Assembly: GCF_036507355.1 (NCBI RefSeq)
Contig: NZ_AP027877.1
DNA: 64,000 bases
Direction: 5' to 3' (one strand)
From: Escherichia coli
Lineage (GTDB): Bacteria; Pseudomonadota; Gammaproteobacteria; Enterobacterales; Enterobacteriaceae
The translations under genes were made by a program, and so were the position numbers. Shown one piece after another: positions 1 to 16,973 of this stretch (the first letter of the stretch is position 1; every line of letters begins with the position of its first letter). A model generated the notes under the pieces. That model did no database searches, was not told the origin of the DNA, and saw nothing but the letters and a program-made list of their open reading frames with translations.

Positions 1-345
1 TGGCGAGAAAGCCGACTCCCGCGGCGAGAAATAAATATGGCGTCGGTCCGGTCAGCGCCTTTCCAGTTAGCACGTTCCAGGGTCCAGCGTTCCACAGCTT
101 CACGCTCATCAAAACGTAACGGGTGAACGGTAGAAAATCCGTTCTTCAGTCGGCGAATATTTATTCGACCTTCATTAAGGTCAAGATCCTGATAATGCAG
201 ATCAAGCAGTTCACTAATACGCATCCCATGCCGATATGCCAACAGAATAAGACAATAATCTCTGGCTCCCGTTGCCCCGTAACAAACCGCCTGCATCATG
301 GCCTGAACTTCTTTACCGGTAAGATAACGACGTTTACTCACAATA
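1..345 (-). CDS. fimE: Type 1 fimbriae switch recombinase FimE, N-terminal part (3' end lies beyond window start)
   Basis: Minus-strand translation from GTG at 345 gives VSKRRYLTGKEVQAMMQAVCYGATGARDYCLILLAYRHGMRISELLDLHYQDLDLNEGRINIRRLKNGFSTVHPLRFDEREAVERW..., matching FimE from memory; tyrosine-recombinase family. Confidence 0.85.
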
Positions 346-818
346 GTAGTACTCCTAACTGAGATATATTTGAATGAATACCTATAGGAAACCTCAATCG
401 GTCAAAATTAGCCCAATAGATAAAAAGATAACCACACACGAAGTGATGTGGCTATCAGTCAATTACATTAAATATCATACAAAAATAAAATATCACTGAT
501 GTGATAACATCTATTTTCATTGATTTGATTCAATATAACAATAGATTGCAGTGGATTAACTTCCAGTTGCTTAAAAAATAAAGGAAAAAGTGCAGAAACA
601 GGAGAGTTTAAGTGATGTGTAAATTTATGAATGATTTTGTTTATTTATTTTGAAGAACATAAACCATTGTATTTTGTATGGATATGGTTAACTTAATGTT
701 TATTATGATAATTAAGAATCATACTTACAATAACATCAATTAATAAATGGTTAATCATTTTTGATATATCGTAAGAATAATGTAGTTTTTAACACCATCC
801 CTGGTATCTCAACTATCT

Positions 819-1421
819 CTATAAAACAGCGTGACGCTGTCGTCCTCTGGCTCTATCCCAGATGCCGTAAAAACGCCCTGCATTGCTGGCGGTATACCAG
901 ACAGTATGACGAATATTGCGATGCCCAAGATAATCCTGGATAAGTCGCGTATCTATTCCCATATTCGCCAAAGCAAAACTACACGAATGGCGTAACATGT
1001 GCGGATGAATCTCCAGTGACAACCCGGCATTACCACCGGAAGTCGAGATAATATGGTAAAACTGTTGCCGAGAAAGCGGATTCCCCTTACGCGATAAAAA
1101 TACCCACTCGCTCTCAGCATGCGGGTACGAAGTACGGATACTCAACCAGTTTTTTAAAGCCTGAACTTCTTTATTCAATAGCGGGTGCGTTGTTGAAAAG
1201 ACTTTTTTTAATCGATGGATATATATACACTTTGCCTTAAGATCAATATCCGAAATCCTCAATCGACAAATTTCACTCGCCCGGAAACCATGAATAAAAC
1301 AAAGCAAAGTCAGACAATAATTACGTGCTGCATGAGGCCCGGTATTTGCTGCTTTAAGGAGTGATTCGATTTCACTATGGGTCAGGAAGTTCCTTTTTTT
1401 GTTATCAGCCTTATTCTTCAT
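819..1421 (-). CDS. fimB: Type 1 fimbriae switch recombinase FimB (tyrosine recombinase)
   Basis: ORF 819..1451(-); internal Met gives MKNKADNKKRNFLTHSEIESLLKAANTGPHAARNYCLTLLCFIHGFRASE... (200 aa), matching FimB; conserved HxxR and Y motifs near the C-terminus. Confidence 0.9.
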   Translation of the reverse strand: MKNKADNKKRNFLTHSEIESLLKAANTGPHAARNYCLTLLCFIHGFRASEICRLRISDIDLKAKCIYIHRLKKVFSTTHPLLNKEVQALKNWLSIRTSYPHAESEWVFLSRKGNPLSRQQFYHIISTSGGNAGLSLEIHPHMLRHSCSFALANMGIDTRLIQDYLGHRNIRHTVWYTASNAGRFYGIWDRARGRQRHAVL

Positions 1422-2436
1422 CGTTTTTCCCTTATAATTACAGACGCGCACTAGCTGTGCTGGGTTAGCAATAATCCAACATTTTTATCCTGATTATGTT
1501 TATAAAAGCGAACGTTTGCTTAATAACTAACGTAAGTGGACCAGTTCTTCTGAGTGAACTTAAATGGAGTAGCAACAGTTAATTATAATAACGTTGCCAT
1601 ACAAACGCCATGCTCTTGCATGCTATGTACCTTTATATATTTATCAATCGGATACGAATCTAATAATAACCCTCATCATTAATGCAACTAATCTTATCTA
1701 TATATCATGTGATATGTTCTGTAACAAGTAAAATCAACATAAAAAATTCAGCAAAATTTAATATTCGTTCAACTAGCCGTCTCACATATGACATTATTAG
1801 TCAACTCCATTTGCCACAAAATGGCTATTTCATGGAGCGCAGTAATTTCTTAGTGGCTATTATCATGCTAATTCTTAGGTCCCTAGCGATTATTCCTGGC
1901 TGATTCGTCAGCTTACGCCATGAGATTGTTACATTCATTTTTATCCTGGAGATATGGGGGAACGCAGGAGATGATTTTTTCATCTACATTCGTTGGTAAA
2001 TATAGCTTTGGTCACTACGACTTAAACCTTCCTCAATCACAGCCATTCGCCGGGCGATACGGCAAACAAACTAAGTGAAACATCATCCTGAAAACACCAA
2101 CATCAACAAGCCTCTCCAGATCGACTTCAGAAGTGACCAGTTACAAGCCACAAACCAAGAAACATATTTCATGATGAGAATTATGCTCAGCCTGATGGCG
2201 GGTAAACACTGATTTTCACCAAGCTCACGGAGTTAGCTTGCAAAGCTTTCCTTGTTTAGACTATAAATAAATTATTTATAAAACAAATAGTTAAACGAAG
2301 ATCTTTAGTTTTTGAAGACCACCGCAAGTGTTCGTCTGGCTTCACATGGCATCTTCCTCTTAGAAAAATATCGACATATTTTGTGACACGAATTGCAAAT
2401 CTGGTTTTGTTGTATGGATTGCGTGATTTTTGTTCT

Positions 2437-2459
2437 GGTATAACAGGTATAAAGGTGCA
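2437..2459. promoter_or_regulatory. Candidate NanR operator (GGTATA repeats) in the fimB-nanC intergenic region
   Basis: Sequence GGTATAACAGGTATAAAGGTGCA: two exact GGTATA hexamers and one degenerate copy at 9-bp spacing, the known NanR repeat pattern; sits in the ~1.45 kb spacer between divergent fimB and nanC. Confidence 0.5.
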
Positions 2460-2875
2460 CCAAGATAGTCAATGAGACAGGGCATCTTGCAATCTATGGC
2501 AAACATCACTTCAGTTCTTTCTCATCGGGTGATGAAAACGCACTTCAGTCTGAAAGGAATATGAAAATGAGATCAACAGACACTCTATTTTATGACTCCG
2601 GGTAAAATGGATTGAGTAAGTGATATAGCTTACGAACATTCAAATCAATTAAACATCAGAAGAGATTTTATACTCAGGTATTTAATCTGGATCTCTGTTT
2701 ATTTAAATAATGTGAAACGAGAATTTTCACAGGAGACCTTATACAAAAAATATAAAATACAGTTACCCGTTGCCAAAGACACTATAAGCCTGGCAAAAAA
2801 TATTACACAACATAAATGCTAATTGTTTATGCGGGCTTTGTATTGCTTTCTGTATCCTACAAATGAGTGAAATTT

Positions 2876-3592
2876 ATGAAAAAGGCTAAAATACTTTCTG
2901 GCGTATTATTACTGTGCTTTTCGTCCCCATTAATTTCTCAGGCTGCGACACTGGACGTACGTGGTGGATATCGTAGTGGAAGCCACGCCTATGAGACTCG
3001 ACTCAAAGTCAGTGAGGGATGGCAAAATGGATGGTGGGCAAGCATGGAAAGTAATACCTGGAATACCATTCATGATAATAAAAAGGAAAATGCCGCACTC
3101 AATGATGTTCAGGTTGAAGTTAATTACGCGATTAAACTTGATGATCAATGGACGGTGCGCCCGGGAATGTTAACGCATTTTAGCAGCAACGGCACACGCT
3201 ACGGACCCTACGTAAAACTGTCCTGGGACGCGACAAAAGATCTTAATTTTGGCATTCGCTATCGTTACGACTGGAAAGCTTACCGACAACAAGACTTATC
3301 TGGTGATATGTCTCGTGATAACGTTCATCGTTGGGATGGATATGTCACTTACCATATTAATAGTGATTTCACCTTCGCATGGCAAACGACGCTATACAGT
3401 AAACAGAACGATTATCGCTATGCAAACCATAAGAAATGGGCGACGGAAAATGCATTTGTTCTACAATACCATATGACGCCCGATATTACGCCATACATAG
3501 AATATGACTACCTTGACCGTCAGGGTGTTTACAACGGCAGAGATAATTTATCGGAAAACAGTTATCGCATTGGTGTGTCATTTAAACTGTAG
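2876..3592 (+). CDS. nanC: N-acetylneuraminic acid outer-membrane channel (KdgM family porin)
   Basis: ORF 2867..3592(+); MKKAKILSGVLLLCFSSPLISQA signal peptide then beta-barrel-like alternating sequence; matches NanC/YjhA from memory. Confidence 0.85.
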   Translation: MKKAKILSGVLLLCFSSPLISQAATLDVRGGYRSGSHAYETRLKVSEGWQNGWWASMESNTWNTIHDNKKENAALNDVQVEVNYAIKLDDQWTVRPGMLTHFSSNGTRYGPYVKLSWDATKDLNFGIRYRYDWKAYRQQDLSGDMSRDNVHRWDGYVTYHINSDFTFAWQTTLYSKQNDYRYANHKKWATENAFVLQYHMTPDITPYIEYDYLDRQGVYNGRDNLSENSYRIGVSFKL

Positions 3593-3611
3593 TAGACAGG
3601 AGACAGTCACA

Positions 3612-4718
3612 ATGAATAAAACAATAACGGCGCTTACTATCATAATGGCTTCATTTGCCGCAAACGCGTCTGTATTACCGGAAACTCCTGTGCCATTTAA
3701 AAGTGGTACCGGAGCAATTGATAACGACACTGTCTACATTGGTTTAGGTAGCGCAGGTACGGCATGGTACAAGCTGGATACACAGGCCAAAGATAAAAGA
3801 TGGACAGCGTTAGCTGCATTCCCTGGCGGACCGAGAGATCAAGCAACCTCTGCATTTATTGATGGCAATCTGTATGTGTTTGGCGGCATTGGCAAAAACA
3901 GCGAGGGCTTGACTCAGGTATTTAATGACGTACACAAATACAACCCCAAAACCAATAGCTGGGTTAAATTGATGTCGCACGCGCCGATGGGCATGGCGGG
4001 CCATGTGACTTTTGTACACAACGGCAAGGCTTATGTTACTGGCGGTGTTAACCAGAATATCTTCAATGGCTATTTTGAAGATCTCAACGAAGCTGGAAAA
4101 GATTCAACCGCTATAGATAAAATCAACGCCTACTATTTTGACAAAAAAGCAGAAGATTATTTCTTCAATAAGTTTCTGTTGTCTTTTGATCCCTCAACAC
4201 AGCAATGGAGTTACGCTGGCGAATCTCCCTGGTACGGAACGGCTGGTGCGGCGGTTGTGAATAAAGGTGATAAAACCTGGCTTATTAATGGCGAAGCCAA
4301 ACCAGGATTGCGAACGGATGCCGTATTTGAACTTGACTTCACCGGTGATAATTTAAAATGGAATAAGCTTGATCCCGTCTCATCACCAGATGGCGTCGCT
4401 GGCGGTTTTGCGGGGATAAGCAATGATTCTCTTATATTTGCTGGAGGGGCCGGATTCAAAGGTTCACGAGAAAATTACCAGAACGGTAAGAACTATGCGC
4501 ATGAAGGCCTGAAAAAATCATATAGCGCTGATATTCATCTTTGGTATAACGGGAAATGGGATAAATCGGGTGAATTATCGCAAGGTCGGGCCTACGGAGT
4601 ATCATTGCCCTGGAATAATAGTTTATTAATTATTGGCGGTGAAACTGCAGGCGGCAAAGCAGTGATGGATTCAGTTTTAATTTCTGTGAAGGATAATAAA
4701 GTCACAGTACAAAACTAA
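3612..4718 (+). CDS. nanM: N-acetylneuraminate mutarotase (Kelch-repeat beta-propeller), periplasmic
   Basis: ORF 3504..4718(+); internal start MNKTITALTIIMASFAANA (signal peptide), repeated GG/Kelch-like motifs (VFGGIG, YVTGGVN, FAGGAGF, LIIGGE); RBS AGGAGA upstream. Confidence 0.85.
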   Translation: MNKTITALTIIMASFAANASVLPETPVPFKSGTGAIDNDTVYIGLGSAGTAWYKLDTQAKDKRWTALAAFPGGPRDQATSAFIDGNLYVFGGIGKNSEGLTQVFNDVHKYNPKTNSWVKLMSHAPMGMAGHVTFVHNGKAYVTGGVNQNIFNGYFEDLNEAGKDSTAIDKINAYYFDKKAEDYFFNKFLLSFDPSTQQWSYAGESPWYGTAGAAVVNKGDKTWLINGEAKPGLRTDAVFELDFTGDNLKWNKLDPVSSPDGVAGGFAGISNDSLIFAGGAGFKGSRENYQNGKNYAHEGLKKSYSADIHLWYNGKWDKSGELSQGRAYGVSLPWNNSLLIIGGETAGGKAVMDSVLISVKDNKVTVQN

Positions 4719-4750
4719 CGCTTCAGGGCCCCGGTAAAGGGGCCCTGCTA
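4718..4750 (+). terminator. Hairpin after nanM (GGGCCCCGGTAAAGGGGCCC)
   Basis: Perfect GC-rich inverted repeat immediately after the nanM stop; no long U-tract, so it may act as an intra-operon attenuator or RNA-stability element rather than a full terminator. Confidence 0.35.
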
Positions 4751-4782
4751 TCAATTTGTCATTTCAATTACGCGAAATTTAT

Positions 4783-5763
4783 ATGAACGCAATAATATCG
4801 CCTGATTATTACTATATTCTTACCGTTGCTGGTCAGTCTAATGCCATGGCGTATGGCGAAGGACTGCCATTACCGGACAGGGAAGATGCGCCTCATCCCA
4901 GAATTAAACAATTAGCGAGATTTGCGCATACGCATCCCGGAGGCCCGTCATGTCACTTTAACGACATTATTCCACTGACTCACTGCCCACACGATGTTCA
5001 GGATATGCAGGGTTATCACCATCCTCTGGCAACGAATCATCAAACACAGTACGGCACCGTTGGCCAGGCACTGCATATAGCACGGAAATTACTGCCCTTT
5101 ATTCCTGATAATGCAGGGGTTCTCATCGTTCCGTGTTGCCGTGGCGGATCGGCTTTTACCGCGGGCAGCGAAGGGACATATTCAGAACGGCACGGAGCCA
5201 GCCATGATGCTTGTCGTTGGGGAACGGATACTCCGCTATACCAGGATTTAGTCAGCAGAACGCGAGCCGCACTGGCAAAAAATCCGCATAACAAATTCCT
5301 CGGCGTATGCTGGATGCAAGGCGAATTTGACTTAATGACCAGTGACTACGCGTCACACCCTCAACACTTTAATCATATGGTTGAAGCCTTTCGTAGGGAT
5401 CTAAAACAATACCATTCTCAGCTTAATAATATTACTGACGCACCGTGGTTTTGCGGCGATACCACCTGGTACTGGAAAGAAAATTTCCCTCATGCGTATG
5501 AAGTTATTTATGGCAATTATCAAAATAATGTTTTAGCCAATATTATTTTCGTCGACTTCCAGCAACAAGGTGAAAGAGGACTGACGAACGCGCCTGATGA
5601 AGACCCGGACGATTTAAGCACGGGATATTACGGTTCAGCGTACCGGTCACCGGAGAACTGGACGACGGCACTGCGAAGCAGTCATTTCAGCACGGCAGCC
5701 CGTCGGGGGATTATTTCTGACAAGTTTGTAGAAGCAATTTTGCAGTTTTGGCGCGAAAGGTGA
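4783..5763 (+). CDS. nanS: 9-O-acetyl-N-acetylneuraminate esterase (SGNH hydrolase)
   Basis: ORF 4756..5763(+); MNAIISPDYYYILTVAGQSNAMAYGEGLPLP... has the GQSN esterase motif; matches NanS/YjhS from memory. Confidence 0.8.
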   Translation: MNAIISPDYYYILTVAGQSNAMAYGEGLPLPDREDAPHPRIKQLARFAHTHPGGPSCHFNDIIPLTHCPHDVQDMQGYHHPLATNHQTQYGTVGQALHIARKLLPFIPDNAGVLIVPCCRGGSAFTAGSEGTYSERHGASHDACRWGTDTPLYQDLVSRTRAALAKNPHNKFLGVCWMQGEFDLMTSDYASHPQHFNHMVEAFRRDLKQYHSQLNNITDAPWFCGDTTWYWKENFPHAYEVIYGNYQNNVLANIIFVDFQQQGERGLTNAPDEDPDDLSTGYYGSAYRSPENWTTALRSSHFSTAARRGIISDKFVEAILQFWRER

Positions 5764-5770
5764 GCGTTCA

Positions 5771-6025
5771 TTAATTTGATTTATTCGCATCCATCAGCGC
5801 TTTTAACTGCTCCGGCGTAAACGGTGGTTTGCGTCGGTGCAACATCGCATGGCAATTAGGGTACACAGGCAGCAAATCATTAACTGGATCCAGCTGGTAA
5901 TCCTCTTTAATGGCTGACAGCGGCACCAGGTGATGCACATGGATAAAGCCTTCAGCGATATCACCATAGATCTTCACCAGATCAACACCGCATATTCCGT
6001 ATGAACCATACGGAGATTTAACCAT
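5771..6025 (-). CDS. Short HNH-motif protein, possibly a C-terminal remnant of a larger HNH nuclease gene
   Basis: 84-aa translation contains HVHHLVP...N...NCHAMLH (HNH-like His/Asn/His spacing) but lacks a clear first CxxC pair; AT-rich; its start overlaps the start of the divergent HUH gene. Confidence 0.4.
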   Translation of the reverse strand: MVKSPYGSYGICGVDLVKIYGDIAEGFIHVHHLVPLSAIKEDYQLDPVNDLLPVYPNCHAMLHRRKPPFTPEQLKALMDANKSN

Positions 6026-6593
6026 GACCTACAAATACAACCCCTTCTGGCAGCAACGTATTCGTGAGACGGTGCGGCACGCACTGAATGTTCATCCCCG
6101 CCTGACGGCATTGCGGGTTGACCTGCGTCTCCCGGATGTACCGGCAGCAACGGACGCAGCTGTGATATCCCGCTTCATCAATGCCCTGAAAGCCCGAATC
6201 GACGCTTACCAGAAACGTAAGCATCGGGAAGGTAAACGCGTGCATCCCACAACCCTGCATTACGTCTGGGCCCGGGAGTTTGGGGAGTGCAAAGGTAAAA
6301 AACACTATCACCTGATGCTGCTGGTCAACCGGGATACCTGGTGTCGTGCCGGTGATTACCGCGCTCCGGAGTCTCTGGCCGGGATGATTAAACAGGCGTG
6401 GTGCAGTGCCCTGGGAGTGGATGTCGGGTGCCATGCCACGCTGGTGCATTTTCCGGCCTGGCCGGCGGTGTGGCTGGCGCGTAATGATGACACCGGCTTT
6501 CAGCAAGTGCTGGAACGTGCTGACTATCTGGCGAAGGAGTATACCAAAGCTCACTGCACCGGTGAGCGCAATTTTGGCTGTAGCCGGAGTTGA
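6024..6593 (+). CDS. YagK/YfjJ-like (inovirus Gp2-type) protein with HUH-like motif, probable rolling-circle Rep-type nuclease
   Basis: 189-aa ORF; KKHYHLMLLV resembles an HUH motif (His-hydrophobic-His-hydrophobics); resembles YfjJ/YagK proteins of CP4-type cryptic prophages from memory. Confidence 0.55.
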   Translation: MTYKYNPFWQQRIRETVRHALNVHPRLTALRVDLRLPDVPAATDAAVISRFINALKARIDAYQKRKHREGKRVHPTTLHYVWAREFGECKGKKHYHLMLLVNRDTWCRAGDYRAPESLAGMIKQAWCSALGVDVGCHATLVHFPAWPAVWLARNDDTGFQQVLERADYLAKEYTKAHCTGERNFGCSRS

Positions 6594-6846
6594 GCACGAC
6601 TGGCGCGCCAATATCCGGCAAACCAAAAGTATGGGTTGTTGTCTGGCGGCAACGATGTATCCACTCGCCCACTGACTGTTTTTTACGTCAGTGTTCCATT
6701 GTGTGACAACCACAGTGCTGTAACAGCAACCAGCCTGCTTTACCCAAACTCCAGTCCAGATTTTAACTGAACCGCCATTCACACCCTGACCACGCTGCCC
6801 GTACCGGGACGGCTGTTGCCTGCGTGTCGTCTGGCGGCTAAGGAAT

Positions 6847-7254
6847 ATGACTATGTACGCAAAATCCTTTATCGCTCTTGATGGCAACGGACGTCTGACG
6901 GGCGCCCGTACTGCACAGGCCGCACCTTATGCTCACTACACCTGCCACTTGTGTGGCAGTGCACTCAGATACCATCCGCAATACGACACTGAACTTCCCT
7001 GGTTTGAACACACTGACGACAGGCTGACAGAGCACGGTCAACAGTGCCCTTATGTCAGGCCGGAGCGCAGAGAAATACAGTTGATTAAACGTCTGCAGCA
7101 ATTCGTACCGGATGCCTTACCCGTGGTGCGTAAAGCCAGCTGGCACTGCAGACAATGTCACCACGATTATTATGGGGAGCAGTACTGCACACACTGCCAG
7201 ACCGGAGGATTCAGTATTCCCCGGACAACTCAGGAGGAAATATGCGAATTCTGA
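6847..7254 (+). CDS. Cys-rich zinc-ribbon protein, paralog 1
   Basis: 135-aa ORF with CHLCG...PWFEH...WHCRQC...YCTHCQTG; same architecture as the next gene. Confidence 0.5.
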   Translation: MTMYAKSFIALDGNGRLTGARTAQAAPYAHYTCHLCGSALRYHPQYDTELPWFEHTDDRLTEHGQQCPYVRPERREIQLIKRLQQFVPDALPVVRKASWHCRQCHHDYYGEQYCTHCQTGGFSIPRTTQEEICEF

Positions 7255-7676
7255 ACTGTTATATGGCGAATGACAGCAAAGGCCATTTTGTTACGGCGAA
7301 AGAAGCTGCGAAGCACAACCGACAGGACGTTTTGTGCTGTGTGTCCTGTGGATGCCCGTTAACACTTCAGCGGGGCAATGACGGACAACCACCGTGGTTT
7401 GAACATGACCAGATGACTGTCGCTGAAAAAATCCTGCTGCGATGTACCTGGCTTGACCCGGCGGAGAAAGAGGCCCGTCGTTTGCATCTGCAGGGCATGA
7501 CGGTTCCGGATTATACGGTGAAGGTGAGAAAGTGGTTTTGTGTGATGTGTGACGAAGATTATGAGGGGGAAAAGTGCTGCCCACGCTGCGGTACCGGGGT
7601 ATACAGCAGGGCGTGGGGGCGGCAGGAGGTGCCGTCGGAAGATGCCAGGGCTGATAATCCGTTACAGAGGCTGTAA
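7242..7676 (+). CDS. Cys-rich zinc-ribbon protein, paralog 2
   Basis: Start ATG at 7242 preceded by GGAGG RBS and overlapping the last codons of paralog 1; CCVSCG...PWFEH...FCVMC...CCPRCGTG. Confidence 0.5.
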   Translation: MRILNCYMANDSKGHFVTAKEAAKHNRQDVLCCVSCGCPLTLQRGNDGQPPWFEHDQMTVAEKILLRCTWLDPAEKEARRLHLQGMTVPDYTVKVRKWFCVMCDEDYEGEKCCPRCGTGVYSRAWGRQEVPSEDARADNPLQRL

Positions 7677-8009
7677 TGGTTGCCTCCGGAGCAGTTTGCG
7701 GTGATGCCTTTCCCGGGAATGGATTGCCAGTGCGGGGACTGTGGAGCTTAATTCCGGTGTTGGTGGCCTTTCCGTTGATTTTATGCCAACAGCCCCCTGT
7801 GACTGACAGGCTGCCTCGTCATTCCATTCGTATCTCCAGTAACAGGGGGTTGTATTGTATTTTATTGTGCCGGTTCAGGTGTGCGTTTCCCGGCGCGTCT
7901 GCACCGGCTTAACCAAATTCAACAGGGATAAAATAGTGGTAAGCGTACAGCCTGAACCGTCTGGTCAGAATCTGACGAATTAGACAAAGTGGTGTCCACC
8001 AAATAAGTA

Positions 8010-8411
8010 GTGGGAACCAAAGTGTCAGATATGCAGAAAAATGTGACTCCCGGCAGGCGAAAAGGCTGCCCTAATTATCCTCCCGAATTTAAACAGCTGC
8101 TCGTTGCTGCCTCCTGTGAACCCGGGATATCCATCTCAAAACTTGCTCTTGAAAATGGCATTAACGCCAATCTGTTGTTCAAATGGCGACAACAATGGCG
8201 CGAGGGAAAGCTGCTATTACCTTCTTCAGAGAGCCCCCAGCTACTTCCTGTGACTCTCGATGCAGCTGCCGAACAGCCAGAATCGCTCGCAGAGGACCCG
8301 GAAACCCTCAGTATCAGCTGTGAGGTAACGTTCCGGCACGGGACGCTCCGCTTCAATGGCAATGTCAGCGAAAAGCTCCTGACTCTGCTGATACAGGAAC
8401 TGAAGCGATGA
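8010..8411 (+). CDS. IS66-family accessory protein (orfA / TnpA-like)
   Basis: 133-aa ORF with HTH-like N-terminus (ISKLALENGINANLLFKWRQQW), typical of IS66 orfA. Confidence 0.7.
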   Translation: MGTKVSDMQKNVTPGRRKGCPNYPPEFKQLLVAASCEPGISISKLALENGINANLLFKWRQQWREGKLLLPSSESPQLLPVTLDAAAEQPESLAEDPETLSISCEVTFRHGTLRFNGNVSEKLLTLLIQELKR

Positions 8412-8755
8412 TCCCGTTACCTTCCGGGACCAAAATTTGGCTGGTTGCCGGTATCACCGATATGAGAAATGGCTTCAACGGCCTGGCTGCGAAAGTACAA
8501 ACGGCGCTGAAAGACGATCCCATGTCCGGCCATGTTTTCATTTTCCGGGGCCGCAGCGGCAGTCAGGTTAAACTGCTGTGGTCCACCGGTGACGGACTGT
8601 GCCTCCTGACCAAACGGCTGGAGCGTGGGCGCTTCGCCTGGCCGTCAGCCCGTGATGGCAAAGTGTTCCTTACGCAGGCGCAGCTGGCGATGCTGCTGGA
8701 AGGTATCGACTGGCGACAGCCCAAGCGGCTGCTGACCTCCCTGACCATGCTGTAA
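8408..8755 (+). CDS. IS66-family orfB (TnpB-like)
   Basis: 115-aa ORF; MIPLPSGTKIWLVAGITDMRNGFNGLAA... is the IS66 Orf2 signature; start overlaps the orfA stop (ATGA). Confidence 0.75.
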   Translation: MIPLPSGTKIWLVAGITDMRNGFNGLAAKVQTALKDDPMSGHVFIFRGRSGSQVKLLWSTGDGLCLLTKRLERGRFAWPSARDGKVFLTQAQLAMLLEGIDWRQPKRLLTSLTML

Positions 8756-8804
8756 ATCTCTTTATCCTGGTTGTCACAGAATAAGCCCGGTAAAATACGG
8801 GCTT

Positions 8805-10190
8805 ATGAACGACATCTCTTCTGACGACATCTTCCTGCTAAAACAGCGCCTGGCCGAACAGGAAGCGCTGATCCACGCCCTGCAGGAAAAGCTGAGCAAC
8901 CGGGAGCGCGAAATAGACCATCTGCAGGCGCAGCTGGATAAACTCCGCCGGATGAACTTCGGCAGTCGTTCCGAAAAAGTCTCCCGCCGTATCGCACAAA
9001 TGGAAGCCGATCTGAACCGGCTTCAGAAAGAGAGCGATACGCTGACTGGTAGGGTGTATGACCCGGCAGTACAGCGTCCGTTGCGTCAGACCCGCACCCG
9101 TAAGCCGTTCCCTGAATCACTACCCCGTGACGAAAAGCGACTGTTGCCTGCGGCGCCGTGCTGCCCGAACTGCGGCGGTTCACTGAGCTATCTGGGCGAG
9201 GATACCGCCGAACAGCTGGAGTTGATGCGTAGCGCCTTCCGGGTTATCCGGACGGTACGGGAAAAACATGCCTGTACTCAGTGCGATGCCATCGTGCAGG
9301 CACCTGCACCTTCGCGGCCCATCGAGCGGGGTATCGCCGGACCGGGGCTGCTGGCCCGCGTGCTGACCTCGAAGTATGCAGAGCACACCCCGCTGTATTG
9401 CCAGTCAGAAATATACGGCCGGCAAGGTGTGGAGCTGAGCCGTTCACTGCTGTCGGGCTGGGTGGATGCATGCTGCCGGCTGCTGTCTCCGCTGGAAGAG
9501 GCGCTTCATGGCTATGTCATGACTGACGGCAAACTCCATGCCGATGATACCCCGGTCCAGGTACTGCTGCCGGGTAATAAGAAGACGAAGACCGGGCGGT
9601 TGTGGGCGTATGTTCGTGATGACCGCAATGCCGGGTCAGCGTTGGCACCTGCAGTGTGGTTCGCTTACAGCCCGGACAGAAAAGGCATCCATCCGCAGAC
9701 TCATCTTGCTTGCTTCAGCGGTGTGCTGCAAGCGGATGCGTACGCCGGGTTCAACGAGCTGTATCGCAATGGTGGGATAACGGAAGCTGCCTGCTGGGCT
9801 CATGCCCGCCGAAAGATCCACGATGTGCACGTCCGCATCCCGTCAGCACTGACGGAAGAAGCCCTAGAGCAGATCGGTCAGTTGTACGCCATAGAGGCGG
9901 ATATAAGGGGAATGCCGGCAGAGCAGCGGCTTGCTGAACGTCAGCGAAAAACGAAACCGCTGTTGAAATCCCTGGAAAGCTGGTTGCGTGAAAAGATGAA
10001 GACCCTGTTCTTCGGCTCTGGCCATGGTGGTGAGCGGGGAGCGCTACTGTACAGCCTGATCGGGACGTGCAAACTGAATGACGTGGATCCAGAAAGCTAC
10101 CTTCGCCATGTGCCTGGCGTCATAGCAGACTGGCCGGTCAACCGGGTCAGCGAACTGCTTCCGTGGCGCATAGCACTGCCAGCTGAATAA
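8805..10190 (+). CDS. IS66-family transposase (orfC / TnpC), probably carrying an internal in-frame deletion
   Basis: 461-aa ORF with leucine-zipper N-terminus, CxxC...CxxC zinc motif and DDE region; about 50 aa shorter than typical IS66 TnpC, with the conserved region before LFFGS.GGERGA apparently missing. Confidence 0.7.
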   Translation: MNDISSDDIFLLKQRLAEQEALIHALQEKLSNREREIDHLQAQLDKLRRMNFGSRSEKVSRRIAQMEADLNRLQKESDTLTGRVYDPAVQRPLRQTRTRKPFPESLPRDEKRLLPAAPCCPNCGGSLSYLGEDTAEQLELMRSAFRVIRTVREKHACTQCDAIVQAPAPSRPIERGIAGPGLLARVLTSKYAEHTPLYCQSEIYGRQGVELSRSLLSGWVDACCRLLSPLEEALHGYVMTDGKLHADDTPVQVLLPGNKKTKTGRLWAYVRDDRNAGSALAPAVWFAYSPDRKGIHPQTHLACFSGVLQADAYAGFNELYRNGGITEAACWAHARRKIHDVHVRIPSALTEEALEQIGQLYAIEADIRGMPAEQRLAERQRKTKPLLKSLESWLREKMKTLFFGSGHGGERGALLYSLIGTCKLNDVDPESYLRHVPGVIADWPVNRVSELLPWRIALPAE

Positions 10191-10428
10191 CACATCCCCG
10201 TCAATACGGCCCTCGCTGTACGCTTACTTTTGTTCGGACTGCTTATGGCCTTTTTCCACTGGTGTAGCAGGAAAGTTAACCGGCTGCCACCATGAGATGA
10301 CGTGTAAACCGTGCAGGCATGTTTTCACGTGGTGACGCTTTCATTGGGGGTCTACGCCGGAACCCCAATATTGTTCACATACATGAATTTGAAAAACTAA
10401 GCGATACTGCTGTCCGTACCTTATAAAC

Positions 10429-11787
10429 TTATTTCAACGCTTCCGGCAGCGTCACAATCCACAGTTCACTGTCAGACTCCGGTTTCTCCAGTGGCTTCAC
10501 TCTGAGGGTCGTTTCAACCTGCTTGTCGTCAAGCGTCAGCTTTCCTTCCGCGTTCACCCGATAATCCTTGAATGTCTTGCCCTCGACCGGATGTTGCATC
10601 GCCACCTTCACGCCAAAGTCGTTATCGTTCGCCACCGCCAGCGTTTTGCTGTCGATCAGCGCCAACCCTTCAGCCTTCTCCTGCTGCCAGCCCAAGGAGC
10701 GCAGATCAACAACCTGCGTTTTCTGCGCAAGGGTAATGCCGCGCTGTGACAGGGTTTTCTCATCATCAAACTCCGGATACTCACCCGGCTTGTCGAAGCC
10801 TGACAGGTCGCTCGCCTTATTGAGATCGACCTCGTAAATCAGGTTACGCATTCTGTTGTTTTTATCTCTTCCCTGTTCGATCAGCAGGATGTGCTGGTTA
10901 TCGAGCGCCACGATGTCTCCGATTTTAGCGTCGCTGTTTTTGCTGTAGGCCGCGCTGTCGATAGGATAACCGTACATCGCGGTTTTTCCGCTTGCCGGAT
11001 CGAAGCTCACCAGACGCGTAAACAGCGCCTTTTTCTTGCTCTTAGCGTCGATATCCAGCGTACTTTGCACGGCGACAATAATACGCCCGTCCGGCATACG
11101 GGTGAGGCCTTCAAAGCCGCGGTTCGCCTGACGCCATTTGAGGATATTTGGCAAACCGCCCGCAATCGCTTTTTCCCCTTCCGCCGCCTGCGGACCGTGG
11201 ATTGCCAGGATTTTCCCTTTACTGTCGATGTTAATCAGGAACGGGCCATACTCATCGCACAGCCAGTAACCTCCTTTACCATCCGGAGTGATCCCTTCCG
11301 TATCCAGCCCGCGATTATCCCCCTTCAGTCTATGTAACGTGTCGCTGAAGGCCACTTCATTGGTGGAGCCAATCACGTCGCTTGCCAGCGGCAGACCGTT
11401 GATCGCGCCTTTATCGTCATGCAGAGGACGGGGATCGATGGCCTCCGCTTTGCCGTTTTGTACACGAATCGTCATCAGCAGCGGCGCGAAATCTGGCGTA
11501 ACGAAAATTTTAGTTTCGTTTTTCCCCTCTTTCGGTGAATCCGCGTTCGGACCGCGATCGGTAATGGTTGCGAATGTCAGGGCATCGCCCTGTTTACCGG
11601 TGAACAGCAGGCCAGAACCTATCCCAACCGGAAGGCCGTTCGGGAATGCACTGGCAAATGCGCCGGCGTAGTTCACGTGCGTGCCTTCTGGAAAACTGAC
11701 GACATAGCGCTCAGCCGTAGGTTGTGCCGCCAGGGCAGAGAAAGAGAGCGTACAACCGATTAGCACGGGAATAATTTTTCTTTTCAT
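10429..11787 (-). CDS. Secreted phytase-like / esterase-like beta-propeller protein
   Basis: ORF 10429..11802(-); signal peptide MKRKIIPVLIGCTLSFSALAAQP; sequence resembles 'esterase-like activity of phytase' family proteins from memory; no catalytic motif verified. Confidence 0.45.
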   Translation of the reverse strand: MKRKIIPVLIGCTLSFSALAAQPTAERYVVSFPEGTHVNYAGAFASAFPNGLPVGIGSGLLFTGKQGDALTFATITDRGPNADSPKEGKNETKIFVTPDFAPLLMTIRVQNGKAEAIDPRPLHDDKGAINGLPLASDVIGSTNEVAFSDTLHRLKGDNRGLDTEGITPDGKGGYWLCDEYGPFLINIDSKGKILAIHGPQAAEGEKAIAGGLPNILKWRQANRGFEGLTRMPDGRIIVAVQSTLDIDAKSKKKALFTRLVSFDPASGKTAMYGYPIDSAAYSKNSDAKIGDIVALDNQHILLIEQGRDKNNRMRNLIYEVDLNKASDLSGFDKPGEYPEFDDEKTLSQRGITLAQKTQVVDLRSLGWQQEKAEGLALIDSKTLAVANDNDFGVKVAMQHPVEGKTFKDYRVNAEGKLTLDDKQVETTLRVKPLEKPESDSELWIVTLPEALK

Positions 11788-12059
11788 ATTGTTAGCATCC
11801 ATAAAGTGAAGATCACACTACACCATAAAGAAGAAACGAGTCAGGAAAATGACATCGAATGGCAACATGCGCGGGCCTGAGGCCAAAGAAATGTAAAACA
11901 CTGTTGTTATTTGTAACAACGGAAACATTTACGGAAATTATTTGTCTTTCTTCGTGATCAAAAATGCTGTGTCTTGTTGGATTGGAGTGATGAGGGCTGC
12001 GTTTAGGAAACGCCCTATATTGTACGGTTGCATTATCGCGGTAGGGGTAATGCACGTGT

Positions 12060-12200
12060 CAGTATGATGAGCTGACCACACTCACGTGGGTGGACTGGTA
12101 TAACAATCGACGATTGCTGGAAAGGCAGGGCCATATCCCACCGGCAGAAGCAGAAAAAGCTTATTATGCTTCCATCGGAAACGATGATCTGGCAGCCTGA
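12060..12200 (+). pseudogene. IS3-family transposase C-terminal remnant
   Basis: Translates to ...QYDELTTLTWVDWYNNRRLLERQGHIPPAEAEKAYYASIGNDDLAA*, the typical C-terminal tail of IS3-family OrfB; the upstream part of the gene is absent. Confidence 0.4.
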
Positions 12201-12298
12201 GTTCACAGATAAAACACTCTCCAGGAAACCCGGGGCGGTTCACTTAGCCGCGTGTCCATTATTGCTGGATAAGATCATAACGAGGTAATGACTCCAAC

Positions 12299-12802
12299 TT
12301 ATTGATAGTGTTTTATGTTCAGATAATGCCCGATGACTTTGTCATGCAGCTCCACCGATTTTGAGAACGACAGCGACTTCCGTCCCAGCCGTGCCAGGTG
12401 CTGCCTCAGATTCAGGTTATGCCGCTCAATTCGCTGCGTATATCGCTTGCTGATTACGTGCAGCTTTCCCTTCAGGCGGGATTCATACAGCGGCCAGCCA
12501 TCCGTCATCCATATCACCACGTCAAAGGGTGACAGCAGGCTCATAAGACGCCCCAGCGTCGCCATCGTGCGTTCACCGAATACGTGCGCAACAACCGTCT
12601 TCCGGAGCCTGTCATACGCGTAAAACAGCCAGCGCTGGCGCGATTTAGCCCCGACATAGCCCCACTGTTCGTCCATTTCCGCGCAGACGATGACGTCACT
12701 GCCCGGCTGTATGCGCGAGGTTACCGACTGCGGCCTGAGTTTTTTAAGTGACGTAAAATCGTGTTGAGGCCAACGCCCATAATGCGGGCTGTTGCCCGGC
12801 AT
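12299..12802 (-). CDS. insB: IS1 InsB (expressed as InsAB' by -1 frameshift)
   Basis: Translation ...[74 protein letters not shown]... matches IS1 InsB. Confidence 0.85.
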
Positions 12803-12996
12803 CCAACGCCATTCATGGCCATATCAATGATTTTCTGGTGCGTACCGGGTTGAGAAGCGGTGTAAGTGAACTGCAGTTGCCATGTTTTACGACAGTGAGA
12901 GCAGAGATAGCGCTGATGTCCGGCGGTGCTTTTGCCGTTACGCACCACCCCGTCAGTAGCTGAACAGGAGGGACAGCTGATAGAAACAGAAGCCAC
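12721..12996 (-). CDS. insA: IS1 InsA
   Basis: [43 protein letters not shown]... identical in character to IS1 InsA. Confidence 0.85.
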
Positions 12997-13065
12997 TGGA
13001 GCACCTCAAAAACACCATCATACACTAAATCAGTAAGTTGGCAGCATCACCGGCCTCGCATTTAA

Positions 13066-13911
13066 TTATTCATTTAAAGATTCAAGAAATGTCCAGCCTT
13101 TATGAGTAACATAATACATTTGTCCTTTTGCCCCTCTTTCAATCACAAAATCAAAGGATAACAGTTCGTTAAGTGCGCCCTCCCAACGGGCTACCTCTCT
13201 AGCCGAACTTCCACCAAAGGATTGATTTCCCGCTTGAATATCCGTGCCACCTAAATGCCTTATCACATAAATTGTTCCGCTATCATCGACACATGCCAAT
13301 TTCAGCAAACTGAGTGCATCGGCGGACAAATTACTTTCTGGCAAAGATTGACTTGTATTCGCATCAGGAGAATTGTTAATGGTAGATATAAGAGAAGACA
13401 AATAAGGGCTACTAGAAATAATTATCGAAAGTTGCCTACGGACTTTGTCTTTGAAATCAGATAAGTCATTAAAAGACTCTATCAATCCCTTTTGCATGCA
13501 CTCAATTTTGAACAATTTAAGAGACTCATATTGTTCTCTATCAAGGCTTTCAGGGGCAACAGGCTTTGAGGAAAAGTAAATCATTGCCGGTTTTCCCGCA
13601 TTCAAATGACGGTGAATTTCTTCGACTGTTCCGCTGGCCTCGTTCCCAGTCGGTGAGCCTAGACGAGTCCAAAACACACCGATTAATAAATCACAATCTA
13701 CTAATAATCTTTGATTAATCAACTCCTGAGGCCTAACTCCTAATTCGGGTGATGTATGAGTTTCCCATCCAATTGGTGTCAACATTACTTTTGAACGAGC
13801 TGAATTTATATCATTCCACTCATGGATCATTTCACGAATGACTTGTCTCTCTTCAGCGACATCACCAGGAGAAGCAATCATTACAGGGATAACAGTTGCT
13901 GTGTAAGCCAT
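13066..13911 (-). CDS. Hypothetical protein with N-terminal DUF4062-like (TIR/STIR-like) domain and uncharacterised C-terminal domain
   Basis: 281-aa AT-rich ORF with GGAGAG RBS; N-terminus VMIASPGDVAEERQVIREMI...CDLLIGVFWTRLGSPTG...SGTVEEIHRHLNAGKPAMIYFSS fits the DUF4062 pattern as I recall it; start lies 14 nt after the recombinase stop; IS1 ends 14 bp past its stop. Confidence 0.5.
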   Translation of the reverse strand: MAYTATVIPVMIASPGDVAEERQVIREMIHEWNDINSARSKVMLTPIGWETHTSPELGVRPQELINQRLLVDCDLLIGVFWTRLGSPTGNEASGTVEEIHRHLNAGKPAMIYFSSKPVAPESLDREQYESLKLFKIECMQKGLIESFNDLSDFKDKVRRQLSIIISSSPYLSSLISTINNSPDANTSQSLPESNLSADALSLLKLACVDDSGTIYVIRHLGGTDIQAGNQSFGGSSAREVARWEGALNELLSFDFVIERGAKGQMYYVTHKGWTFLESLNE

Positions 13912-13924
13912 AAACTCTCCATAT

Positions 13925-14485
13925 TCAATCGGTAATAGCTGCTACAGTCGCTCTTGAAACGCCATATTGACGCGCTAACGCACTGATACTCAAACCGCTA
14001 TTCTTTTTCTCTAAAATCTCTCTACGGGCTTCTGACGCGATTTTAGGAGGTCTGCCCAATTTCTTACCTTCGGCTTTTGCTCGTGATAGTCCCGCCTGAG
14101 TGCGCTCAATCAGCAGATCACGCTCCATCTCCGCAACCGCGGCGAGCATAGATAATAGCAACTTCCCAGCGGCAGAAGTGAGATCTGTGTTACCAAGCTG
14201 GTGGACAAGAACCTTGATATTACGGTCAGCCAGCGCCCTTACCGTTTGCAGGACGTCAATCGCATCACGCCCCAGACGATCAAGCTTCGCTACCACCAAC
14301 GTTTCACCATCGCGGATTTTATTGAGCATTTCAGAAAATGCTTTACGTTGCATTGCCGGAACCTTCCCGCTAACAACATCGGCAAACCAGTAATCAATTT
14401 GCCACCCAGCCTGCCCAAGCTCCAGCCGTTGGTTCTCAGTATCCTGCTGCGATGTCGAAACACGTCCGTAGCCAAAAGTTGCCAT
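13925..14485 (-). CDS. Small serine recombinase (resolvase/invertase family)
   Basis: ORF 13925..14554(-); true start likely MATFGYGRVSTSQQDTENQ (catalytic Ser motif GYxRVSTxxQ) with GGGGAG RBS; C-terminal HTH SISALARQYGVSRATV; about 186 aa. Confidence 0.75.
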   Translation of the reverse strand: MATFGYGRVSTSQQDTENQRLELGQAGWQIDYWFADVVSGKVPAMQRKAFSEMLNKIRDGETLVVAKLDRLGRDAIDVLQTVRALADRNIKVLVHQLGNTDLTSAAGKLLLSMLAAVAEMERDLLIERTQAGLSRAKAEGKKLGRPPKIASEARREILEKKNSGLSISALARQYGVSRATVAAITD

Positions 14486-14507
14486 TGTTATCTCCCCATC
14501 TGACCCC

Positions 14508-14604
14508 TGCCAGAAAACGAGGCCAACATTAGGATGGCCTGCCAGAAAAGCCAAGGCTATTTTTCCAACAGTGTGAAAGCGTGCGATTGGGAGGTGCCAG
14601 AAAA
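14508..14604. repeat. Three direct copies of TGCCAGAAAA upstream of the serine recombinase start; candidate res-like binding sites/operator
   Basis: TGCCAGAAAA at 14508-14517, 14540-14549 and 14595-14604 (spacings 32 and 55 bp), 23-120 bp upstream of the recombinase start codon. Confidence 0.4.
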
Positions 14605-15460
14605 CGGTCGATTGATGACACCATCAAACACTAACAGTGTGCCCCGGCAACGCGCGCCTGCAACGGTTGTCTCGGATGAGCAAAATCTTAGGGTTTTCTC
14701 AGCGACCCCTGACGCGCGGGCACGCACATGCTCACGGGGGCGCGGGCGAGCTATACAGTTGAGGGAGGGGCAACCATAAGCGTGCAATTTTTCAAGCCGG
14801 GGATTCAGCTATAGGCTAACGGTAGAATGCGGCTTGTAGAGGGTTGTGCGCACATACCCAGTACAATCGCATTACTCCACGCGCACAAACCCCGGAGAGC
14901 CGCTTGCGGTGGGGGTTTAAGAGGTACAATTTTTGGTTCGGGTCATAAAGGACTTTTGAGAGCTGACTTAGCTTATTTAAACTGCATTCGTCTTGGCTAT
15001 GGAGACACGAGGCAGCTCAAGTTTTGTTCAAAACTTTGCAATATTTTGGTTCGATCTCATGTTCTCGTGCTAAAGAAATCAGCACTCGATCAAATTTTCA
15101 TTTTTTTTCTGAAACATTGACATACAGCCTAAGCCTTAAGGCACGTAGGGTTGGTCGAAATTTCCCTTTGACAACCTCAATTTAACCTCAAAATCAACCC
15201 TTGTACTGCAAAGAATCCTAACTAGAATGCTGAACATGTAGGGGGGAATCTTATTAACACACCCTATATGTTGTGCTCATGTATAAATGATGGGCATAAA
15301 AAAACCGGAGTCACCTGCGTGAATCCGGTCTATGAAGCATGACCGCCATGAGTCTGCAAACTCATAACGATTGTTAGCCTCACTATCGTTTCTAACGGCT
15401 CGATTGTGCCCGGCTTGGTTGGTTATGTAAACAGTAAGATAAAATCAAAAGGAACGATCC

Positions 15461-16375
15461 ATGCTTATTCAGAAAAAGCGTATTCGAAATATTGATAATT
15501 ACATACCTAACTTTGATGGCCGTGATATCTACATTGCACATTCTTTGCCAGATGCGGGGAAAACGGACTCTATTGGTTTCTCAAGTCAAAGAGCTTTAGG
15601 TGAAGAAGTCCTCCCCAAGATTTTAGGGCCAATAACCAGATTCAATGCTAATGGCAAATCAGTACCTGACAAAACAGCACCTAAAGAAACTGCATACAGA
15701 CAAATTTCATGGACTAGAAAGCAATGGATCGGAGGGGGCGCAACTCAAGAAGTTACTGACACTCGTGAAATTGAGTATAAGCGCTACAAGAGAATCCTCA
15801 CCCCTCCACCAAGCATAGAGTTAAAGATTGTAGAGAATCTTCAAGGGGAGAAGTTGATCATCTCTCCAAAGCTAAGTTTGACAGCTAACAACAAAGAGTT
15901 AGTGGCTCACTGCATTAATCTTTTTTTAGAGCTTTTTGGGTTGTGCGAAACTGTTGACGACCAACTTAATACCATCGTTAAAAGTAAATCTATAAAACTA
16001 AACTGGAGCCTCCTGCCTCAGGGTCAACAGCCTTGGAGTACTATCGGTTCAAAAATCCTTTCAGCTATTAAGATCAGGGGAAAGGGCAATACCGCTGTTG
16101 TTGAAGGCAGACTTGAACTTATCAATAGTAAAAAACCAGATTTCGTAGCGGTTGGGCAAGCTGGGTTCCAAGGCTACGTGATATTTGGGTTCACAGGCCA
16201 AAACATTTACGTGCTAGAAAGCTCACAATGTAATAACGCAACTTATATACTTAACAATAATTGGCAGCAGTTATCCCAGCTAACTAAAGCCGAAATACTA
16301 GACGGAAACTTGCACCATGCCCGTGTCATCCACCGTGTAAACTGGGCAGCAGAAATACTTAAATACTTACCATAA
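15461..16375 (+). CDS. Hypothetical protein (304 aa), AT-rich orphan gene adjacent to leuX
   Basis: Uninterrupted 304-aa ORF with RBS AAAGGAA upstream; strongly AT-biased codon usage; no motif I can assign; ends ~510 bp from the tRNA 3' end. Confidence 0.5.
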   Translation: MLIQKKRIRNIDNYIPNFDGRDIYIAHSLPDAGKTDSIGFSSQRALGEEVLPKILGPITRFNANGKSVPDKTAPKETAYRQISWTRKQWIGGGATQEVTDTREIEYKRYKRILTPPPSIELKIVENLQGEKLIISPKLSLTANNKELVAHCINLFLELFGLCETVDDQLNTIVKSKSIKLNWSLLPQGQQPWSTIGSKILSAIKIRGKGNTAVVEGRLELINSKKPDFVAVGQAGFQGYVIFGFTGQNIYVLESSQCNNATYILNNNWQQLSQLTKAEILDGNLHHARVIHRVNWAAEILKYLP

Positions 16376-16888
16376 AGCGCCGGACGCGCGGGAATGAACC
16401 CCCGCGCACTTTCAAACATACCGCAATAGAATCCATAAAGCCCCGTTGGTGGTAAGACAACAAGCGGAGCCTCTGGCGACTACATCACAGTTATGTCAGT
16501 TAGTGAGGCTTATCAGGATGACCATGTACCCAAGGGGAGCGAGGCCGAACCGCTGGCAGAGCTTGCATATGGTCTGCAAGTACCGTGACCACCATAAACC
16601 TGTTTATCCCCTGCGGCGTCTCGCGACAGCGGCAGAACGGGGGCATCGGGCTAAAATGCGCTTCACTAAAAGTTTTTGGGATTGTTTAGAGACAGTGGCT
16701 ACGTCATAGCTTTCAAGTTGAGTCAGTACGTGTTTGACGCTTGGAACTACACGCCGCTATGAGTTAACATCCCAATTACCACTATCAACCACAGCGGCTT
16801 TTTCAAGGGACATAACAGAGCATTTCTTACAGGCAAAAGAGACAGATTTTATTGTCTAACTACCTGTATTGTAAGGAATTTAGTGACT

Positions 16889-16973
16889 TGGTGCCGAAGG
16901 CCGGACTCGAACCGGCACGTATTTCTACGGTTGATTTTGAATCAACTGCGTCTACCGATTTCGCCACTTCGGC
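16889..16973 (-). tRNA. leuX: tRNA-Leu (CAA anticodon)
   Basis: Reverse complement reads GCCGAAGTGGCGAAATCGGTAGACGCAGTTGATTCAAAATCAACCGTAGAAATACGTGCCGGTTCGAGTCCGGCCTTCGGCACCA: 85 nt, long variable arm, CAA anticodon loop, 3' CCA. Confidence 0.9.

Follow-up and report, generated by a model that had tools for sequence, protein, structure and literature searches.

A predicted HUH nuclease gene and two overlapping zinc-ribbon genes in Escherichia coli: a common locus and the probable remnant of a tRNA-island module

Three intact open reading frames lie on the same strand at positions 6024-7676 of the stretch of Escherichia coli DNA analyzed here (64,000 nucleotides, hereafter the window), in a chromosome segment with the order fim/nan, leuX island, valS, treBC and tamB. 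They encode a Rep-like protein of the YagK/YfjJ family and, downstream of it, two small cysteine-rich proteins, which we call ZnA and ZnB. What do these genes do together, and from what kind of element do they come? A preliminary description of the sequence had proposed a remnant of a small integrative or satellite element, possibly with regulatory or anti-defence roles, while allowing that the genes might prove to be ubiquitous and already annotated island genes. The latter is what the databases show: DNA that is 100% identical is annotated in many strains as "inovirus Gp2 family protein", "putative zinc ribbon protein" and "zinc-ribbon domain-containing protein", the trio (at least 80% query coverage) occurs in 1519 of 5426 complete E. 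coli genomes, with a partial match to the trio query in 5231 of the 5426, and the zinc-ribbon pair alone is found in 2698 of them, at a median of two places per genome. That is, the locus was correctly described yet is ordinary and has been catalogued already, and the HUH Rep and AlpA content of such islands has been described before (PMC12458937, section 11). The reading that we favor, with modest confidence and taken together with the mechanism set out below, is that the three genes represent what is left, at the 3' end, of a replication/excision-control module from a CP4-57/leuX-type island of the Enterobacterales.

The first gene (6024-6593, + strand; 189 aa, pI 9.7) matches the Pfam family YagK_YfjJ_C (PF11726) over model positions 1-170 of 170 (E = 1.1e-47), with REP_ORF2-G2P as a second, weaker Pfam match, and is under purifying selection (dN/dS 0.09-0.22). 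Its HYHLMLL motif (residues 94-100) had been read as HUH-like and typical of rolling-circle Rep or relaxase nucleases, and among 16 homologues, down to 21% identity, D33, E85, H94, Y95, H96, N102, Y168, K171 and K175 are all invariant. In a confident predicted model, H94-Y95-H96 (codons 6303-6311, + strand) lies on strand 93-102, the YxxK motif with the candidate catalytic tyrosine (Y168-L-A-K171, codons 6525-6536, + strand) is placed C-terminal to it on helix 156-170, and the predicted fold is similar to solved HUH nuclease domains; this order, HUH and then YxxK, matches the arrangement of Rep proteins. The motif, the invariant residues and the predicted fold thus bear out the identification as a Rep-type nuclease and, at the level of sequence and model, show the gene to encode a single-tyrosine HUH nuclease of the YagK/YfjJ family. 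The literature search returned no biochemical data for any YagK/YfjJ protein, and neither a nick site nor an origin was found in the region, where the inverted repeats are unremarkable. We rejected the identity with inovirus gene II that the RefSeq name implies, given that the neighbors are island genes and not coat or morphogenesis genes. The PHROG match of the protein is to a family of unknown function, and the phage collection contains no homologue except in one UNVERIFIED, low-coverage contig of 4.5 kb ("Escherichia phage ECO111 5-P"), which was set aside as evidence of packaging.

The two genes that follow, ZnA (6853-7254, + strand; 133 aa) and ZnB (7242-7676, + strand; 144 aa), both encode a DUF7828 domain (Pfam E = 2e-31 and 9e-31, respectively) and a Zn_ribbon_11 domain (E = 8e-9 and 2e-18). 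The same series of motifs runs through both proteins, i.e., CHLCG (31-35), PWFEH (49-53), WHCRQC (97-102) and CTHCQTG (112-118) in ZnA, and CVSCG (33-37), PWFEH (51-55), WFCVMC (98-103) and CPRCGTG (113-119) in ZnB; the two sequences are 31% identical over 125 aa (BLASTP E = 2e-15), which, together with the shared Pfam domains, places their paralogy far beyond chance. In a sample of 40 diverse family members, of which 40 match DUF7828 and 39 Zn_ribbon_11, all eight zinc ligands are kept as a CCHC set in the first domain (C33, C36, H55 and C68 in ZnB numbering) and a C4 set in the C-terminal ribbon (C100, C103, C113 and C116). The AF2 model of ZnB (pLDDT 87.8) has two domains and is confident within each; no informative structural neighbor was found for the zinc-ribbon model in the PDB or AFDB, and PDB sequence searches gave nothing or chance zinc-finger matches only. 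The family is small (266 matches, many of them fragments, in a profile search of 1.84 billion representatives) and, by its AFDB matches, confined to the Enterobacterales. A peptide-pattern scan of contigs returned only two, both from a MAG labelled Collinsella, one with a 98%-identical partial copy. NCBIfam held no family for any of four proteins, and our literature search found no paper that discusses DUF7828/Zn_ribbon_11 proteins. Two candidates were rejected: the K-12 pseudogene yjhY, a "zinc finger" gene, is unrelated to the pair at E<=1e-3, and a 454-aa fusion (P0184) considered as a Rosetta-stone link has a C-terminal 300 aa whose similarity to the Rep family is insignificant (hhalign E 0.067).

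Could the two zinc-ribbon frames instead be fragments of one longer gene, or debris? Some copies are annotated as pseudogenes (e.g., in strain A30) and many database entries of the family are partial or chimeric, as decay would predict. However, each frame in the window encodes a complete two-domain protein with all of its ligands, single-copy homologues have the same length as each paralog, the pair is kept in Klebsiella, and the dN/dS of 0.2-0.4 for these genes excludes the pseudogene-fragment idea, so that we regard decay as refuted by the sequence analysis and give it practically no credence. The two downstream genes are therefore true paralogs, as first proposed, and we return to the island-module reading with two functional-looking partners of the Rep-like gene. 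ZnB is closest to the single-copy form of other genera, and ZnA-type genes form a clade of their own and always come first, ZnA being the conserved upstream paralog and ZnB the variable downstream one.

The boundaries of the pair needed some adjustment. The ZnA gene itself stands, but its earlier start at 6847 does not; the true start is almost certainly the ATG at 6853, two codons later, because the Shine-Dalgarno sequence AAGGA (6840-6844) lies 8 nt before it, the homologues all start with MYAKSF, and RefSeq agrees. Similarly, the GGAGG ribosome-binding site of ZnB is real, with its coordinate corrected to 7233-7237; position 7242, to which it had been assigned, is that of the ZnB ATG. ZnB does start inside the end of ZnA, whose TGA stop at 7252-7254 makes the overlap 13 nt long (junction 7233-7254, + strand). 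The geometry of this overlap (ATGCGnATnCTGA) is identical in a Klebsiella plasmid copy in which the coding DNA is 70% (ZnA) and 62% (ZnB) identical to that of the window, and E. coli HS has a 4-nt overlap in place of the 13 nt. Judged from these comparisons, the kept overlap fits translational coupling of the two genes.

How constant is the association of the three genes? The preliminary description had called for a survey of co-occurrence with YagK/YfjJ genes, and in all ten of the distinct contexts that we checked by hand such a gene lies on the same strand, at most ~1.3 kb upstream of the zinc-ribbon gene. In seven contexts, i.e., all except the three E. coli chromosomal types, alpA belongs to the same-strand cluster as well, in the order Rep-like, AlpA, zinc-ribbon (L005, L008, L011, L017 and L024) or AlpA, Rep-like, zinc-ribbon (L015 and L026). 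The Klebsiella plasmid segment mentioned above (L024) carries Rep-like, AlpA, ZnA-type and ZnB-type genes in that order. Between the Rep-like gene and the leader of ZnA, the variable spacer of the window (6594-6766) is, by comparison with other copies, replaced by an unrelated, shorter sequence in other E. coli and by alpA in other genera. E. coli HS has a ZnA that is 87% identical to that of the window (dN/dS 0.22), while its Rep-like gene (26%) and its second zinc gene (34%) belong to other types, which makes the module a mosaic. The genes that intervene in two contexts (L018 and L019) were considered as a lost third component and rejected; they are unrelated to each other and thus cargo. 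The Rep-like/AlpA/zinc-ribbon module is the most constant core of such islands, and the zinc-ribbon pair is an uncharacterised, tightly linked accessory of it. From this gene neighborhood we infer a link between the zinc-ribbon proteins and the Rep-like protein.

The cargo 3' of the zinc-ribbon gene, by contrast with the core, varies (McrBC, SMEK/CTD10, type I RM or Hachiman, and BREX in E. coli HS), and related loci carry fec, Dnd and BREX, with Ag43 also present in the island family. An element so rich in antirestriction and defence genes, and the small, cysteine-rich nature of the two proteins, might suggest that ZnA and ZnB are themselves anti-defence or defence cargo, as had been floated initially. 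Yet their linkage is with the Rep/AlpA core and not with any particular cargo, the PADLOC defence models match neither of them nor the Rep-like protein, PHROG has no family for them, and a set of 50,697 phage records contains no copy, so we consider a cargo role quite improbable compared with a role in the island's own replication/excision-control module.

A further feature of the locus is the 86-nt non-coding leader directly 5' of ZnA (6767-6852, + strand), which includes the Shine-Dalgarno sequence of that gene. It is 90.7% identical in nucleotides between the window and the Klebsiella copy, compared with 62-70% for the flanking coding sequences, and in a metagenome scan its core was found upstream of 75 of the 75 ZnA-type genes recovered. 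Away from the pattern used for the search, the columns of the leader reach an identity of 0.86, which is as high as at 1st and 2nd codon positions and higher than at 3rd positions (0.68). No Rfam family matched it, and an RNA structure was considered and rejected: there were no covariation or compensatory pairs, the named structure did no better than shuffles, and the fold z-score was -0.05. The leader is thus a sequence-level cis element, which may resemble a sigma-54 -24/-12 promoter. It is also the one detail of the locus not described before; in the main text and the supplements examined of PMC12458937, neither the leader nor the DUF7828/Zn_ribbon_11 genes are mentioned.

It is conceivable that ZnA and ZnB act independently of the HUH protein, as regulators or sensors that control island induction or cargo expression via the leader. 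Such a role would agree with the position of the zinc-ribbon genes, always where the conserved core meets the variable defence cargo, with a conserved ZnA next to a ZnB that comes in swappable types, and with the strong conservation of the cis element. However, no DNA-binding fold is recognisable in the proteins, their pI (5.9-6.9) is close to neutral, and the single-copy ZnB-type genes lack the leader upstream; overall, we hold independent regulation to be rather unlikely. A bolder proposal, to which we assign a somewhat lower probability still, is that ZnA, ZnB and the leader form an unrecognised control switch of the commonest defence-carrying family of tRNA islands in the Enterobacterales; the HUH Rep and AlpA might, for instance, be gated by a zinc heteromer that responds to a helper phage or plasmid, with the ZnB types giving specificity. 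We continue to favor the reading of a replication/excision-control module with the zinc pair as accessory.

Of that module, the window holds the Rep-like gene and the zinc pair only, not an intact CP4-57/leuX-type island. Window positions 1-5994 are colinear with positions 1001-6995 of the corresponding locus of strain CAVP888 (L002), and megablast synteny places a deletion junction at 5993-5994, where ~3.5 kb (L002 6996-10497) are missing. The junction truncates an HNH endonuclease gene on the opposite strand (partial, 5771-6025, - strand; recognized by colinearity with L002, with weak PHROG HNH and PADLOC mREase_IV matches), the full version of which encodes 216 aa in L002 (6772-7422); in the window, the C-terminal ~74 codons are native, and the first codons and the ATG were created by the junction. 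On the other side, the deletion has spared just 31 native nucleotides before the ATG of the Rep-like gene. In all 1519 genomes that bear the trio, the match starts only at query position 294, that is, at window position 5993, where homology to all other copies begins. No promoter-like site is left upstream of the Rep-like gene in the window; in an intact copy, the sole upstream promoter-like site lies 137 nt before the ATG, outside the retained DNA. By tblastn, the window contains no alpA remnant; the L002 integrase has no counterpart in it, and no integrase adjoins the module.

At the 3' end, a 17-nt inverted repeat (7789-7805/7837-7853) followed by a T-rich run makes a candidate operon terminator (7789-7870, + strand; a consensus-level match only), beyond which an IS66-family element (7939-10227, + strand; tnpA, tnpB and tnpC, with 22-nt terminal inverted repeats) forms the right border. 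The 8-mers that flank this element differ (AAATAGTG and TTTTGTTC), so there is no matching 8-bp duplication. The deletion at 5993, the loss of alpA and the IS66 element downstream together mark the locus as a stranded remnant, and the module here is probably inactive or only read through, its intact reading frames notwithstanding. Hence, the initial proposal of an integrative-element remnant was right with respect to the remnant, as the deletion and the synteny indicate, but nothing demonstrates a small or satellite nature of the parent, which belongs to the family of large CP4-57/leuX-type tRNA islands.

In an intact island, the favored mechanism would run as follows. AlpA- and integrase-driven excision would come first, after which the HUH nuclease would nick the circular island at an origin, presumably through Y168 with a metal held by H94 and H96, and this nick would start rolling-circle copying of the excised island. 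ZnA and ZnB, as proteins with two zinc sites each, would be made at a ratio of ~1:1 through coupled translation, and a ZnA/ZnB heteromer may assist or regulate the Rep/AlpA module; contacts with other proteins are a likelier route for this than DNA binding of the classical basic kind.

Alternatively, the HUH protein could be a relaxase that nicks an oriT of the island for single-stranded DNA transfer by a helper conjugative element, with ZnA and ZnB as relaxosome accessories. MOB_T is an established class of Rep-like HUH relaxases (10.64898/2026.01.13.699239), and the adjoining backbone has genes typical of a leading region (ArdB/KlcA-type antirestriction, DUF932, RadC and DUF905). Further, 41 of the 67 plasmid records with a homologue are typed as conjugative, although several of the plasmid matches are island segments or misclassified chromosomes; the plasmids that bear the homologues are large, with at least one of the copies inside an island-like segment, and none is a small rolling-circle plasmid. 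The analysis detected neither an oriT nor a coupling protein nor a relaxase Pfam family, however, and mobilization by helper phages is favored in PMC12458937. We therefore see transfer by conjugation as a possible but distinctly less probable function than rolling-circle copying after excision.

Among known systems, CoiA_N (PF25164) and DUF7830 have the CxxC...(F/W)xH...C spacing in common with the family, with weak matches to the two models in 8-9 of 40 members; the CoiA_N matches stay below significance (0 of 40 at E<=0.001, 9 of 40 at E<=0.1, best 1.3e-3) and hint at a shared type of zinc finger. In CoiA, a PD-(D/E)XK nuclease domain follows the finger, which is not the case in the zinc-ribbon family, and no function has been assigned to the CoiA finger (10.1101/2024.02.06.579203). 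The Rep-like protein, on the other hand, has a predicted fold in common with SIRV1 ORF119, parvovirus NS1, AAV Rep and RepB of pMV158, all of which, like it, have the HUH motif followed by a helix-borne YxxK with a single tyrosine.

At the level of whole elements, the closest K-12 counterparts are YfjJ (CP4-57) and YagK (CP4-6), which belong to the same Pfam family (PF11726; the window protein is 36% identical to YfjJ) and occupy the same position in P4-integrase-type tRNA islands, adjoining alpA and yfjI. In CP4-57, yfjJ is followed directly by the defence cargo abpBA and rnlAB, with no zinc-ribbon gene, so that a Rep-like gene can occur without the pair; the window copy, in turn, has lost alpA, yfjI and its upstream region. 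The PIMEs (10.64898/2026.01.12.698999) follow a logic of integrase, AlpA and replicase with defence cargo that is like that of this island type, but they combine RepA with TraJ/TrbJ/TrbL, lack both YagK/YfjJ and zinc-ribbon genes, and form a separate family; the PIME and "minimal hitchers" preprints, which concern other element families, were set aside. Islands of the type discussed here supply E. coli and related bacteria with BREX, Dnd, Druantia/Zorya, fec and Ag43. With the HUH target and the role of the zinc pair and leader in hand, the mobility of a major class of such defence islands could be put to the test; the window copy is a decayed example that adds nothing further. A further match is provided by the tRNA-targeting mobile elements with fec, Dnd or BREX cargo of a 2025 preprint (PMC12458937, section 11 and Fig. 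5), which encode AlpA-like excisionases and HUH rolling-circle initiators. These elements share with the window the type of locus (leuX, with fim operon and valS borders) and the core gene classes, and the window holds one fragment of what they carry.

The leuX island of this strain extends over only about 11 kb (~5764-16890 in the window), with the leuX tRNA placed by synteny at ~16.9 kb, and is without the fec operon and without the integrase, both of which are present in strain CAVP888. Compared to the latter strain, a 3.5-kb deletion with its junction at 5993 joins a truncated HNH endonuclease gene (5771-6025), reduced to its C-terminal third, to a site 31 nt 5' of the Rep-like gene (6024-6593, + strand). 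The fusion produces an 84-aa chimeric ORF on the opposite strand, and the start codons (ATG) of this ORF and of the Rep-like gene overlap.

On the other side, a 17-nt inverted repeat followed by a T-rich run (7789-7870) is found 110 nt 3' of the stop codon of ZnB (7242-7676) and represents a possible terminator of the operon. Next comes an IS66-family element (7939-10227) with 22-nt terminal inverted repeats (GTAAGCGTAC...). The 8-mers on its two sides are unequal (AAATAGTG and TTTTGTTC), which points to an IS-mediated rearrangement, as opposed to a simple insertion.

Relatives of the Rep-like gene were also found elsewhere. The zinc pair of the Klebsiella plasmid pRWS292.s3 is immediately followed by a second paralog of the YagK/YfjJ family (L024:9151-9717), whose product matches this family with an hhalign probability of 95.7%; this paralog is probably catalytically dead because CKM replaces HYH and the tyrosine region is missing. 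The Rep-like gene is also present, at 93% identity, in a 4468-bp GenBank record named "Escherichia phage ECO111 5-P" (OR844780.1; UNVERIFIED_ORG, coverage 3.7), which is most likely host island DNA within a phage preparation. Further, in E. coli HS, the BREX type 1 locus (brxL, pglZ, pglX) directly adjoins the Rep-like/ZnA/Zn trio (the region L022:8212-18545).

Among the database homologues of the zinc-ribbon family, P0031, P0033, P0040 and P0054 appear to be recombinants in which ZnA-type, ZnB-type and "MNGIKTGLG"-type sequences, the last being a third type, are combined; this indicates that paralogous island copies recombine frequently. A longer homologue, P0184 (454 aa; L026:2797-4161), carries the DUF7828 + zinc-ribbon module at its N-terminus, its C-terminal 300-aa region matches no Pfam family, and its gene is preceded by alpA and by a YagK/YfjJ gene of 350 codons' product length (350 aa). 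Many UniProt entries of the family (AFDB50 matches) are named "DNA-directed RNA polymerase, beta subunit/140 kD subunit", a misannotation that has evidently been passed on from entry to entry.

Finally, an 86-nt non-coding leader (6767-6852) upstream of ZnA (6853-7254) shares 91% nucleotide identity with the Klebsiella copy vs. 62-70% for the surrounding genes. This leader was found ahead of every recovered ZnA-type gene but not ahead of the single-copy ZnB-type genes, and a search for RNA covariation within its 86 nt returned none. It includes a CGGGACG-N4-TTGCC stretch, which may resemble a sigma-54 promoter.
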